Positions 58,785 through 63,178 of a DNA stretch of 64,000 nucleotides are shown one piece after another. The notes below the pieces were generated by a model, which saw nothing but the letters and a program-made list of their open reading frames with translations, did not search any database and was not told the origin of the DNA. The stretch spans positions 128,001-192,000 of the forward strand of contig JAJREF010000001.1 of the NCBI GenBank assembly GCA_047459655.1. Reading direction: 5' to 3'. Both the position numbers and the translations under genes were made by a program. Each line of letters begins with the position of its first letter. Position 1 is the stretch's first letter. The DNA comes from Rhabdochlamydiaceae bacterium (lineage in GTDB: Bacteria; Chlamydiota; Chlamydiia; Chlamydiales; Rhabdochlamydiaceae).

Positions 58785-58910
58785 CCGCGTCAAAGCCCTG
58801 GGGTTCAGCGATCGTAAACTGGTTTATATTGATTAATACTAACCAGCTTACGATCGCTCAACCGCAGGAGCTTTCACGTGGCTACAATGTCGGTTTATAA
58901 GTGAGGATTG
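58756..58910. mobile_element. Family B 155-bp palindromic element
   Basis: CAATCCTCACTGATAAACCGACATTGTAGCC ... GGCTACAATGTCGGTTTATAAGTGAGGATTG with near-continuous pairing to the central loop. Confidence 0.85.
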
Positions 58911-59772
58911 TAACTCTTCATTAAAATAGGGGAGAAGCTCGGGGGCTTCATTTGTAAGCCATTGCCCTAGCTGTTTTGTTTTACGCTCAAGTTCGATCTG
59001 AGCAATGACAGGATCTTTGAGAGAGTCGTCCAAGACAAAAGATCCCACATCAATAGAAATGGCCCTATTTCCCATGTAGCCATAGTTTCTTCTAAGGCCA
59101 TTATCATTATCGCGTATTCCTTGTGCCGAAGCGGTTGCGGATGTATGAGAATATACTTTGGATAAGAGTCTTGGCTCCTGCCACATCATGATTTGCAATC
59201 TGCTCTTCTATCTTAGATAAGATCCGGGGTGCATATTTTTGAACGATGAATGAAGTTCGATTGCAGGTCTAGGCGGTAGCTGATCCCTAGATTATCTACA
59301 ATTTCTACGAGTGGAAGGTCAGTAGTTGGGTTCAAGTGAAGATAGCAAACCCCTGTTTCCTCTGGAAGCTGTTCTGCTGCAATTTTACAACTTTCAAAGA
59401 CGGGATAGAATCTCTCGTTGCGCGTCTTGAGAAACTCAAAACGGTACCGTTTAAGAGATTCAGGTAAAAAAGAGTCAATGATGTGAATCAAAGCGTCGGG
59501 GATATAGTACTGTCTTTTAAAAAACTTGATCACCATGGTTTTATCTCTGATTGGCAAAGACATAAGATTGACCACCCCTATCTAAAAAATGGAAAGGCTG
59601 CGATAGGATCTTGTCTCTATCATCCAATGTAACACGACTGTTTAAAACAGCATCATAGGGAATGTTTTGATCGATAGCCATAAATGTAAAGCCTTTAGTC
59701 TTATCTTCGCAGAATGACTTTACCAAGATAAAGCCTAAGATAAAAAGAGAGAGTTTAAAGAGTTTTTTGCAT
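58848..59772 (-). CDS. Membrane-anchored kinase-like protein K5 (several frameshifts; start uncertain)
   Basis: QPFHFLDRGGQSYVF, MVIKFF, EETGVCYLHL, GIRDNDNGLRRNYG, IDVG across fragments. Confidence 0.7.
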
Positions 59773-60564
59773 TTGTTGATCAAAGTAGGCCACATAATCT
59801 GGTTGGTTATTTTGCAGGTGCTGTCTTACACCTAAGAGCTGTAAAGATAATGTCCTCTGAAAACCTGGATAGAAGGCAACCCGAGGATCTTTTTTAAGGG
59901 ATCCAAAATCAATGAGCATGACCCTATCTCCGATTACTCCAAAGTTACGCTTAATCATTGGATCTAAATTAACAATCCCTTTTAAAGCAAGAGTAGAGGT
60001 AAGCTCAACCATCCCATCTATGGAATCATGCGAAAGGGGAGAAGTAAGAAGAGCTGCTTTTTTTTGGAGTAAAAATTGTGTAGCTCCAAGCTCAACCTGA
60101 TGAGCAATACCCAGCTTGTCGAAGAGTGTTATAGAAGCTGAAGGCTGATTCTTAAGATAGGTTCCAATAACTCCTGTTTCTTGTGCGATTTCTTCAGAGG
60201 CAATCCTGCAACTCTCGATTAGTTCCTCGAGTCTTTTTTTCCGCTTTTCCAAGTAAAGATTTCGCAGATTGGTTAAGGGAGCAGGAAGAGATAAGTTAGC
60301 AAGAAAGGGAAGGGGTCTCCGTCTACTCTGCTTGATGAATTTGATGACCGTTGTGCCATCTTCACTCTCAAAAGCATAAAACTGCTTGCCCGATCCCAAA
60401 AAATAAAAAGGCTGCGTGCATATGGTAGGAGTTTCTAAAGAAGATTGAGAGGGTGTTCCACTGATGATTTTAGAGGGAGTAAATCCTTCTGTCTGCGAGT
60501 AGCAGAACCTCTCAGAGATTACAAAAAACAAGATAAAAAGAGAAATTTTTTTCCAAGCCTTCAC
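59755..60564 (-). CDS. Membrane-anchored kinase-like protein K4 (intact, 269 aa)
   Basis: N-terminal TM, QPFYFLGSGKQ, TVIKF, GIVNLDPMIKRNFG, IDFG. Confidence 0.8.
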   Translation of the reverse strand: MKAWKKISLFILFFVISERFCYSQTEGFTPSKIISGTPSQSSLETPTICTQPFYFLGSGKQFYAFESEDGTTVIKFIKQSRRRPLPFLANLSLPAPLTNLRNLYLEKRKKRLEELIESCRIASEEIAQETGVIGTYLKNQPSASITLFDKLGIAHQVELGATQFLLQKKAALLTSPLSHDSIDGMVELTSTLALKGIVNLDPMIKRNFGVIGDRVMLIDFGSLKKDPRVAFYPGFQRTLSLQLLGVRQHLQNNQPDYVAYFDQQMQKTL

Positions 60565-61302
60565 AGCTCTACCTCTGGGTAGTTGATCTTAACCCATGAG
60601 ACAAATTTTTCTGGATATTCTGCTTTTTGAACAGGAGCGTTCACAAATTTTCCTGGGTCTAAGAAACAGGGTTTACCATCGATGAAGCCGAGGTTTTGAG
60701 CTAGGTGGCTATCTGTATCATCAATCGCATGGCTTCTTCTAATTTCCATAAGAACTTTCAGAGATTCAAAAACCGCCTGAATATTACTTGCGTGCGTAAG
60801 GTAGGAGTAAAGAGGCTCCCCCTTTTTCTGTATTGCAAAAGGGTCTTCTGCAAGGGGAGCTGATGTTGAATACCTAATTTATCTACAAGGTTTACGGTTT
60901 GATCAAAGGCGTTTTCAGTGTCCAATTTTAAAAAGATCAGCCCTGATTCCTCTGGAATTCTTTCAAAAGCAAGCAGGTAACCTTCGATATCACGGATCAG
61001 CTTGCTTATTTTTTTGTGTGGTATTTTTTTAAGGGGAACAAAAGCATTGGGGCTGTTTTTGAAAATTTGATCACATACTTTTGATCTTCAGAGACAAACA
61101 CAAACGACTGGCCACCTCTTGCAAGGTAATAAAACGGTTGCTTCAAAATTTCTTTCGTTACAAGAGCATTGCCGTGATTAGTAAAAGGAAGTGGAGGGGC
61201 TGCATTGATTCTTCTTATGGAAAAGCCTTCTGTTTCTTTTTCACAGAATAAAGAAACGACATAAAATAAAATAAAAAAGACTGTAAATTTAAGATACCGC
61301 AT
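60561..61302 (-). CDS. Membrane-anchored kinase-like protein K3 (frameshifts)
   Basis: QPFYYLARGGQ, YVIKF, AIDDTDSHLAQNLG, LDPG. Confidence 0.7.
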
Positions 61303-61355
61303 TCATTTAGAATAGCAGAGAAGCAAAAGATTTTCAAAGTTTTTATCAAGAACCC

Positions 61356-61501
61356 TTAGTCACCCAAGAGGTCTGTAATAAAATGGCAGGCCGTTTTCTT
61401 TAAATCTTTATACTGCTTTAACATTTTTTCTTTGTACATAAAAAAAGAATAGTTAAGACAATCAAAGCTAACAAAAATAACCTAAATAATAATTTCAACA
61501 T
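61356..61501 (-). CDS. Small single-TM protein (~50 aa, probable frameshift in a T run)
   Basis: MLKLLFRLFLLALIVLTILF, with the other frame continuing MYKEKMLKQYKDLKKTACHFITDLLGD; GGAG upstream. Confidence 0.4.
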
Positions 61502-61529
61502 GAGGAAAGCTCCTGCAAAAGATGGTGAT

Positions 61530-62333
61530 CTAAAGAGGGGTAATCTTAGAGAGTCTCTGATGAAGGCATTCAGTAACCCTCCGAATTTCCTCTTTTTGCT
61601 CAAGTAAAGTTTCTTTTTTTAAACTGCCGACATCTAGCTCGATTGTTTGCTGGTCTAGACATCCAAAATTTTTAAAAAGATCGACATCGGTATTGACAAT
61701 CCCTTTTTGATATTGTTTAGTCAGAAGAGATACCAAGTGGGAAATAAGGTGTTTTGCCTCTTCTTCTTTTTGCTCGTCCATTAACCTTTTCAGGTGAGGG
61801 TAAAGGGGGTTTACTCGTTTTTGCAGGATAAAGTCTGTAGAATCCAGATCCAGTGTGTGGGCAATCCCAATTTTATCCACAATGACAAGCTTCTGATCGA
61901 AGAAGTCAGTCTTATTGAGATGAAGAAAAAGAAGGCCCGTTTCCTCACTTAAGTCTTCATAGGCAATTTTATAGCTTGTAAAATCTCTTTCTAACTTTCC
62001 TTCTAATGCCTTGCCCTTATCAGGGGAGGCTAGCTTTTCCCATATAGAGGGCCTAAGATGATTATAGCGAATAAGTTTAATCACGTATTGCTGATCTGCA
62101 GAAACAAAAACGAAAGCCTGAGAGCCTTTTCCGAAGTAAGAAAAAGGCTGGTCAAGAGCTTTTTTTATCGCAGCTAGCTTTCCTTTTTGTGGAATAGGCA
62201 CCTCCCACGCGGCATTAAACGGAAGATTAGATGAGATCTTACAGATCTGAAAGCCATCCAACTCTTTTCTAGAAAAGAGCGACATCCCTACAAAGACAGC
62301 TATAAAAATAATGCTCTTAATGAAGTATTTCAC
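61530..62333 (-). CDS. Membrane-anchored kinase-like protein K2
   Basis: QPFSYFGKGSQ, YVIKL, EETGLLFLHLNKT, GIVNTDVDLFKNFG, LDVG. Confidence 0.8.
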   Translation of the reverse strand: MKYFIKSIIFIAVFVGMSLFSRKELDGFQICKISSNLPFNAAWEVPIPQKGKLAAIKKALDQPFSYFGKGSQAFVFVSADQQYVIKLIRYNHLRPSIWEKLASPDKGKALEGKLERDFTSYKIAYEDLSEETGLLFLHLNKTDFFDQKLVIVDKIGIAHTLDLDSTDFILQKRVNPLYPHLKRLMDEQKEEEAKHLISHLVSLLTKQYQKGIVNTDVDLFKNFGCLDQQTIELDVGSLKKETLLEQKEEIRRVTECLHQRLSKITPL

Positions 62334-63178
62334 ATTGCCTTTCTAGCTCCTCACAGAGCGTCTTATATTCTTTTTGCAAGCTCATATGGAGCTTATCTGT
62401 AATCCTGATGATTTCATCTTTGTATTTTTGAGGATCACTTTCAGAAGGATCTTTTTTGAATCGACCCGGATCGATCTGAATCGGTTTGCCATTAACAACC
62501 CCAAAGTTGGTAAAAAGATCAGGATCTTTATCAAAAATTCCTTTTTGACAACGTGTCACAAGTAGAGCAATTAAACGAGATAAAAGCTCCTTTGCCTCTT
62601 GCTCTTGCCCCTTATTCATCATGCTTTGCAAAGTAGGGTAGAGGAGATCTGCCTTCTTTTGCACCACAAACTCAAGCTCATCTAGGAATAGAAAATGGGA
62701 AATTCCCAATTTGTCGATCAATTCAATCTTCTGCTGCAAAATATCTGTTTTATTTAAATGGAGGTAGATTAGCCCTGTCTCTCTCTCATATGGTCGTAGG
62801 CTATTTTATAGCTTGTAAAATCTTGCTCCAATTTCGCCTCTAGCCTTGCCACACGCTGCCGAGTTCTTTCAAAAGGTAGCTTTTTTAAAAATGGAGCTTC
62901 TCCCATATGGTCATATCTAAAGAATTTAATGACATAATGCCCATCTTCTGAGCCAAAGACAAATGACTGGGCCCCTTTTCCTAAATATCTAAAAGGTTGG
63001 TCCAAAACTTTTTTTACTCCCACGATATCTTCTGCTCTCAAAGCCTCGACTTCCCACTCAGGATGAAAGGGTAAAGAAGAGCAGATCTTGTCTACCCGAA
63101 AGCCATCCGTCTGCTTTTTACAAAAAAAGCAACACCTACGAAACCGCAGATCAAAAGAATTGATTTAAGCCATCTCAT
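62317..63178 (-). CDS. Membrane-anchored kinase-like protein K1 (two frameshifts)
   Basis: Start MRWLKSILLICGF; QPFRYLGKGAQ, YVIKF, GIFDKDPDLFTNFG, IDPG. Confidence 0.75.

Follow-up and report, generated by a model that had tools for sequence, protein, structure and literature searches.

Several groups of kinase-fold proteins depart from the Hanks type in ways that invite comparison with membrane-anchored bacterial proteins. KdkA, WaaP, WaaY and YrbL belong to families without an N-terminal anchor, and RIO and Bud32 have Gly-rich loops reading GxGKES and GAEA, respectively. POMK, as described in PMC5142810, carries a type II anchor before its kinase domain, has a lengthened catalytic loop and is active without the αC Glu, and the motif KxGQ is given as invariant for the ABC1/UbiB/COQ8 family in 10.1101/149823. 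Here we describe a tandem array of five genes (K1 to K5) in a 64,000-nucleotide (nt) stretch of DNA from a Rhabdochlamydiaceae bacterium (assembly GCA_047459655.1, contig JAJREF010000001.1, positions 128,001 to 192,000), called the window below, with all positions counted on the whole stretch. The genes encode five paralogs of an apparently Chlamydiota-specific family with a predicted minimal protein-kinase fold. Our analyses of their sequences argue for a real, large and uncurated family that probably represents a new architecture for the bacterial kinase fold, and from which a function can be deduced with less certainty.

The genes are co-oriented and partly overlapping on the minus strand at 58848-63178, as a preliminary description of this DNA had reported (Table 1). 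K1 and K2 overlap by 17 nt, K3 and K4 by 4 nt and K4 and K5 by 41 nt, and the gap between K2 and K3 is ~190 nt. Their products are 30-49% identical to one another; those of the intact orthologs in L004, a close relative that has all five genes and served as our reference, are 29-48% identical. Every motif from which kinase likeness had been proposed was located: a basic, then hydrophobic N-terminus followed by FxxxxTxGF or LDGF; the Gly-rich loop QPFx[YF][LF]xxGxQ; the VIK, E[TS]G and D[KN]LGI or DKIGI blocks; the catalytic loops DPDLFTN, DVDLFKN, DSHLAQN, DPMIKRN and DNGLRRN; and [IL]D[PVF]G. The key residues are G70, K86, D216, N222, D234 and G236 in K2 and K75, D201, N207 and D219 in K4. 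The sharing of these motifs is not due to chance, since a family profile matches K2 (E 3e-95), K4 (E 1e-75) and every piece of K1, K3 and K5. Two more single copies of the family are present in the genome, on contigs C3 and C5. The true start of K3 may lie somewhat further upstream, and the final ~60 nt of the K5 frame enter a repeated hairpin (58756-58910), with similarity to the L004 ortholog stopping at 58914.

Table 1. Coordinates of the kinase-like genes, a promoter candidate and signal-bearing glycosyltransferases (GTs) of the same genome.
Feature	Position	Strand	Description
K1	62317..63178	-	position-1 subfamily kinase-fold paralog; frameshifts near 63127 and 62783; 78% to intact L004 gene 1 over 281 codons
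K2	61495..62333	-	open frame 61530-62333; frameshift near 61547 costs the last helix; 75% to L004 gene 2
K3	60561..61302	-	shorter paralog; frameshifts near 61065 and 60841; 78% to L004 gene 3
K4	59755..60564	-	269 aa, GTG start, sole whole copy; 64% to L004 gene 4, unbroken
K5	58848..59795	-	frameshifts near 59547, 59264 and 59128; 74% to L004 gene 5
Sigma-70-like candidate site	63186..63214	-	8 nt before K1 start, 10/12 matches
GTs with export signals (three GT32, one GT2, one GT25)	C5:19369-21207, C5:32619-36348, C3:23827-24855		one with a lipobox-like motif

Structural comparison bore out the fold assignment, which had been made from motifs. An AlphaFold model of K2 without its last helix (pLDDT 94.9, pTM 0.89) predicts a member of the protein-kinase-like superfamily. 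All listed Foldseek rows are kinase-like (Rio2, Rio1, AceK, WbdD, COQ8A, PRPK and ArkI; TM ~0.4, top rows E 3e-5), as are the VIA rows, the best of which has a Z of 11.2 (rmsd 3.4, 174 residues aligned) and the best of a wide search a Z of 10.3 (rmsd 3.9, 180 aligned). Z values of 9-11 were obtained for many kinases, all tied, such that no kinase subfamily stands out. In a 567-row alignment (307 rows from loci, 258 from protein searches and two from the window, some of them repeated; effective number 511), the β3 Lys is conserved in every row (567), followed in order by the catalytic Asp (560 rows), the metal-binding Asn (565) and the DxG Asp (561). Because 555 rows retain these four residues together with the loop Gly, there is no pseudokinase subgroup, and conservation of this kind makes it highly likely that the family is catalytically active. 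The unusual D-x5-N spacing of the catalytic loop and the missing APE segment, remarked upon in the five paralogs, hold throughout the family: D-x5-N occurs in 226 of 258 proteins and D-x4-N in two (30 were unmatched), xPE in 13 of the 567 rows and H/Y-x-D in two. Alignment column 72 is coupled with columns 225, 231 and 247, linking the Gly loop with the catalytic loop by sequence couplings that would fit a single pocket shared by the Lys, Asp and Asn, and subfamilies differ at the Gly-loop tip and the catalytic loop in those same co-varying columns, as expected if these loops set the acceptor. The C-lobe of the model has neither an APE segment nor a large helical pocket; by analogy, such a lobe would suit an acceptor that is large or bound to the membrane.

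Likeness to RIO, Bud32 and Kdo-type kinases, also proposed in the preliminary description, stands in part. A small C-lobe without APE is shared with RIO, Bud32/PRPK and ArkI (6fdn, 1zth, 7szc, 7vnx), which are the top Foldseek rows, and the Gly loop of the family, G-x-G-x-[QE], can be likened to those of RIO and Bud32. However, these kinases, which are soluble, lack the N-terminal anchor, the hairpin insert, the D-x5-N spacing, the restriction of the αC acid to half of the members and the arrays of two to eight genes that characterize the family, and no Pfam or NCBIfam profile of RIO, Bud32 or Kdo kinases matched any of 63 members. The KdkA/WaaP/WaaY and YrbL families (PF06293, PF06176 and PF10707) likewise consist of short bacterial kinase-fold proteins and are the nearest named Atlas clusters (WaaY 0.87, Kdo 0.87, YrbL 0.88-0.89), all below 0.9 and so leads only; profile matches (0/63 for PF10707) and linkage to lipopolysaccharide (LPS)-core genes are both lacking. 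The ABC1/UbiB/COQ8 proteins (PF03109) are similar in having a single-pass anchor, a kinase fold at the membrane surface, D-P at the catalytic base and a helical insert between β3 and αC, but membership was rejected, with KxGQ and the Ala-rich loop each in 0 of 567 rows and PF03109 matching 0 of 63 members at E 0.1. POMK and FAM20B place an anchor before the kinase domain, the layout predicted here, and the VIA alignment with POMK (5gza) has a Z of 9.7, a value that other kinases equal, yet there is no sequence match, the catalytic loop of the family is longer by one residue rather than five, and the family is bacterial, keeps the canonical Lys, Asn and DxG and has no disulfide pattern. This resemblance is best read as an analogy of function, not membership. 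The H/YRD motif, D-x4-N spacing, APE and invariant αC Glu that define Hanks-type kinases are also not features of the family. By membership tests on its sequences, therefore, the family lies outside the Hanks-type, RIO/Bud32, ABC1, Kdo/WaaY, YrbL and POMK groups.

The N-terminal segment appears to be a membrane anchor. Of 258 proteins, 185 reach a 19-residue hydropathy of at least 1.6 within their first 45 residues, and none does so beyond residue 45. The segment is not amphipathic, net charge ahead of the hydrophobic run is positive in 98% of 244 proteins, and in the same set charge is higher on the N-terminal than on the C-terminal side of the run in 63% and lower in 17%. Other types of signal were considered and rejected: a lipobox G/A/S precedes Cys in only six of 408 Cys-bearing rows (Phe does so in 358), a Tat motif occurs in 0 of 258 proteins, an A-x-A site typical of cleaved signals occurs in 25 of 567 rows, and a prepilin-like G|F site is ruled out because the hydrophobic stretch precedes it. 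The anchor is very probably uncleaved, and the kinase domain is probably on the periplasmic side, a placement that favors the extracytoplasmic domain proposed earlier but is deduced from charge only. Columns 21-27, where the anchor exits, co-vary with the hairpin tip (164-169) and, in the Gly-loop strand, Y67 (ranks 8, 12, 71, 96, 102 and 137), and the β3-αC insert is enriched in Trp (3.7 vs 1.0%), Pro, Lys and Arg and depleted of acids; together, these features suggest that the N-lobe rests on the membrane.

The family is widespread in Chlamydiota. A search with the K2 sequence returned 62 relatives, and a profile search returned 2,581 clusters at 50% identity, 1,905 of them at E < 1e-30; named members are annotated only as 'hypothetical protein'. 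Members were found in 220 of 300 Chlamydiota genomes, a survey in which one genome went unscored and at most seven candidates were scored per genome, so that copy numbers are floors. Positive genomes comprise 59 of 62 in the window's own taxonomic family (f1), 46 of 46 in f7, 32 of 32 in f6, 24 of 26 in f9 and 17 of 18 in f3, whereas none of the 29 f4 genomes and none of several small Chlamydiota families surveyed has a copy. We infer that f4 corresponds to Chlamydiaceae because three of its genomes carry full-length Chlam_OMP (E < 1e-211). Records labeled Verrucomicrobia or Acidobacteria that carry the family (L011, L018, L023-L025, L035 and L054), all sharing the gene order, are probably mislabeled bins, as is L046, which is labeled C. 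trachomatis and lacks that order, but whose protein groups with the first-position genes of f1-type arrays. The proposal that these proteins are uncharacterized held up, in that no curated Pfam, NCBIfam or PDB family claims them: Pfam searches of 14 proteins from the window and of 63 members of the family gave no match for the kinases, NCBIfam had no family for the same 63 (one MTRK match, 1/63 at E 0.023, is at chance level), and a profile search of PDB sequences yielded three chance matches and no relative. Longer fused forms were absent among 7,995 candidates, which is weak evidence for long proteins; plasmids had no match, and viral folds returned generic kinases only. We found no description of the family in the literature, and no chlamydial family of this kind is named in the available portions of 10.64898/2026.09.18.752743, PMC9758233, PMC10870513, PMC9723776 and PMC10448858; the KINtaro and Gradowski et al. 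2020 sets, which lie outside this comparison, may bear on novelty.

Among 70 loci, 60 have at least two copies and 43 have five to eight, 147 of 172 gene junctions overlap or abut, and the array is bounded by a gene for a secreted protein (46 loci) and by Vut_1 and tgt (30 and 27 loci). For 292 of 296 copies the closest relative is in another locus (median identity 64%, vs 37% within the locus), which rules out a recent expansion, and clades track array position. The exception is the K1/K2 pair, which groups as a within-lineage duplication (SH-aLRT 99), indicating that K2 arose, on sequence grounds, from the position-1 gene. The expansion and diversification recognized in the window are thus real but old and position-specific, and the array positions are best interpreted as old orthologs with different active-site loops. 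In other families, represented by 20 genomes chosen for having a match, there are one to five copies, either isolated or in groups of two or three, and their neighbors differ, so the long array with its fixed layout is a feature of f1 rather than of the phylum.

Four of the five genes in the window are interrupted. Frameshift-aware alignment to the intact L004 genes confirmed and placed the frameshifts suspected earlier, at eight sites (two each in K1 and K3, three in K5 and a single one close to the end of K2), leaving K4 whole. L005, with the same gene order, has four whole genes and a fifth interrupted by a contig end. Elsewhere in the assembly, 17 of 45 conserved genes tested change frame, including rpsA-, nusA-, dnaA- and pheS-like genes; this survey undercounts breaks, and the background rate derived from it is thus too low. 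Assembly-wide frameshifts are typical of unpolished long-read assemblies. At three break sites, contigs from runs X4 and X5 depart from the window by a single base. Run X1 shows such single-base differences at three positions where the reading frame of the window is unbroken, indicating that low-depth contigs carry errors too. Because L004 is intact, breaks occur throughout the assembly, the X4 and X5 contigs differ and the broken copies retain their catalytic residues, the eight frameshifts appear to be mostly, or all, sequencing errors. Decay of the array in this strain, with four of five copies true pseudogenes, is a separate question from function; it would account for the local break density (eight in 4.3 kb, compared with an undercounted background of 0.6 per kb; Poisson p ~0.005) and for five breaks that no independent contig among those listed bridges, but we consider it improbable given that conserved genes elsewhere are broken as well, that contigs of other runs differ at three sites and that the broken copies, with all catalytic residues kept, are at 74-78% to L004 compared with 64% for intact K4.

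Genes near the array in relatives may point to nucleotide chemistry outside the cytoplasm. Downstream of the array, Ndk genes occur in 13 of the 70 loci (12 distinct genes) and uridine kinase genes in 12 (11 genes), all with hydrophobic N-terminal extensions as judged by eye, and GT2 genes occur in nine, with an extension visible by eye in eight. Examples of signal-bearing Ndk and uridine kinase genes in environmental chlamydiae are L008:12450-12968, L036:15772-16485, L082:11432-12100 and L083:1241-1795; a uridine kinase with an export signal is unusual. In the genome under study, five of seven GT2, GT25 and GT32 matches carry N-terminal export signals of this kind, including a homolog of the array-side GT2, the GT25 gene lies ~1.1 kb from the C3 kinase copy, and TLC nucleotide transporters are present. 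According to PMC13318545, the Ndk2 protein of Waddlia is secreted and bears a signal peptide, and PMC5451489 places chlamydial import of host ATP at its highest in the replicative stage.

We tentatively propose that an uncleaved N-terminal helix holds these enzymes in the inner membrane with the active site facing the periplasm, that host-derived ATP crossing the periplasm would serve as phosphate donor, that membrane-bound envelope glycans or glycolipids would be phosphorylated, and that each paralog would act on a different acceptor. Taken whole, this proposal is possible rather than probable; that the acceptor is a glycan or glycolipid is, by analogy, somewhat favored. A broader scheme, in which the periplasm of environmental chlamydiae would be a Golgi-like workshop running on host nucleotides, with exported nucleotide-sugar GTs building envelope glycans, exported Ndk and uridine kinase recycling nucleotides and the array phosphorylating stepwise as a counterpart of POMK and FAM20B without a Chlamydiaceae equivalent, is more speculative and itself doubtful. 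Several observations weigh against the proposal. With a median of 14 residues, the uncharged run is short, and basic residues follow as well as precede it. Cys columns lack disulfide-like co-variation, cytoplasmic enzymes (RIO, PRPK, AceK, WbdD and COQ8) provide the nearest folds, and an acid at the αC-Glu position, in a column assigned by analogy, is limited to 291 of 567 rows. That ATP is available in the chlamydial periplasm is our own supposition. No signal-bearing Ndk lies beside the array here, the sole Ndk of this genome has no signal, and uridine kinase was not found in the genome, which is 82% complete. In other families, the kinase genes mostly have unrelated housekeeping genes as neighbors, and GT32 does not track the kinase (17/18 vs 0/18 genomes in f3; 32/32 vs 8/32 in f6), a distribution that rules out GT32 as an obligate partner. 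GT32 is commonest where copies are many (54/62 in f1, 26/26 in f9 and 5/5 in f17), a weak parallel given that related genomes are not independent.

The same anchor, fold and catalytic evidence could describe periplasm-facing protein kinases whose substrates would be proteins of the envelope or the outer-membrane complex, e.g., as elementary bodies mature. CotH in spore coats and FAM20C in the Golgi are comparators for such a role, the best VIA rows are ordinary protein kinases (Z 10-11), and a secreted protein with two predicted Ig folds is encoded upstream in 46 loci. However, there is no APE segment or P+1 pocket, all kinases tie in the VIA comparison, the Ig-fold neighbor was found in only eight of 20 kinase-bearing genomes, and the membrane-docking elements suggest an acceptor at the level of the membrane, leaving this role unlikely. 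A cytoplasmic orientation, in which the membrane-tethered proteins would phosphorylate lipids or the LPS core or act as lipid-stimulated ATPases, in the manner of KdkA/WaaP/WaaY or UbiB/COQ8, would make ATP supply unproblematic and would agree with the basic residues after the anchor, the Atlas leads, the presence of WbdD and COQ8A among the Foldseek rows, the UbiB-like D-P-x-x loop and the finding of LpxC in 32 of 32 genomes tested. LpxC also occurs where the family is missing, so LPS does not discriminate, and LPS genes are not consistently linked to it; with N-terminal positive charge favoring an N-in/C-out topology, the UbiB motifs absent and no Pfam match among 63 members, we regard this orientation as similarly unlikely.

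Export by Sec to the inclusion membrane or host cell is less plausible still. Minimal kinases are common bacterial effectors, and the family is expanded and divergent, but its conservation is vertical and position-specific within a housekeeping block, neither pseudokinases nor fused domains were found (weak evidence for long proteins), no copy is on a plasmid, and the anchor seems folded onto the domain. Inc proteins have a long bilobed hydrophobic segment, whereas the family has one short segment. A signal-bearing Waddlia Ndk does reach host compartments, according to PMC13318545; host-directed activity of the kinases is nonetheless improbable. Finally, the kinases could trap host sugars or nucleosides in the periplasm as phosphates for nucleotide or sugar-phosphate carriers. 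The downstream Ndk and uridine kinase, both with export signals, thymidine kinase, queuosine-precursor transporter and Tgt would suit such scavenging, as would the TLC transporters. The K2 model lacks the large helical pocket that small-molecule kinases of this fold have in the C-lobe, the MTRK match is at chance level and the downstream block is not kept in other families, making scavenging very improbable.

The secreted protein encoded upstream of the array (L003:2631-3335, just outside the window; L004:3557-4363) has no Pfam match and is predicted to form two Ig/Fn3-like sandwiches resembling RbmA. Among 26 genomes its gene is present in eight, all from f1, f7, f9 and f30, and it was rejected as an obligate partner. 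Downstream of the array, at 53425-58784, lie dus, a Vut_1 transporter gene, tgt and genes for thymidine kinase-like, GNAT-like and RDD proteins, in an order kept in relatives. An ArkI-like role in tRNA modification, considered in view of dus, tgt and Vut_1, was rejected; the linkage is absent in other families and the anchor would go unexplained. An Hsp20 gene follows the array in 15 loci (e.g., L014:12158-12586), within ~60 nt in 14 of them. At L002:3639-6458, the single kinase copy of C5 lies 3 nt before a gene on the same strand for a 630-aa sulfatase-family membrane protein; proteins of this type modify envelope glycans. Two repeats flank the array: a 155-nt near-perfect hairpin (predicted -108 kcal/mol) at 58756-58910, where dus and K5 converge, with relatives at 14 places in the genome, and a sequence at 63224-63421 resembling a miniature inverted-repeat transposable element (~170-200 nt with identical 32-nt ends, ~76 genome places), directly upstream of the K1 promoter candidate. 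The scan for promoters and terminators was at chance level, with 11 sigma-70-like sites found and 11.3 expected in shuffles.

Together, our data describe a family that exceeds 2,500 clusters and occurs in roughly three of every four chlamydial genomes sampled, that has no curated profile and for which we found no published description. K4, whole at 269 residues, offers an expressible test case. If the domains face the periplasm, these proteins would be enzymes that depend on ATP in a compartment commonly assumed to be free of it, made possible by energy parasitism, and the absence of the family from the sampled Chlamydiaceae would mark a testable difference between the envelopes of environmental and pathogenic chlamydiae.

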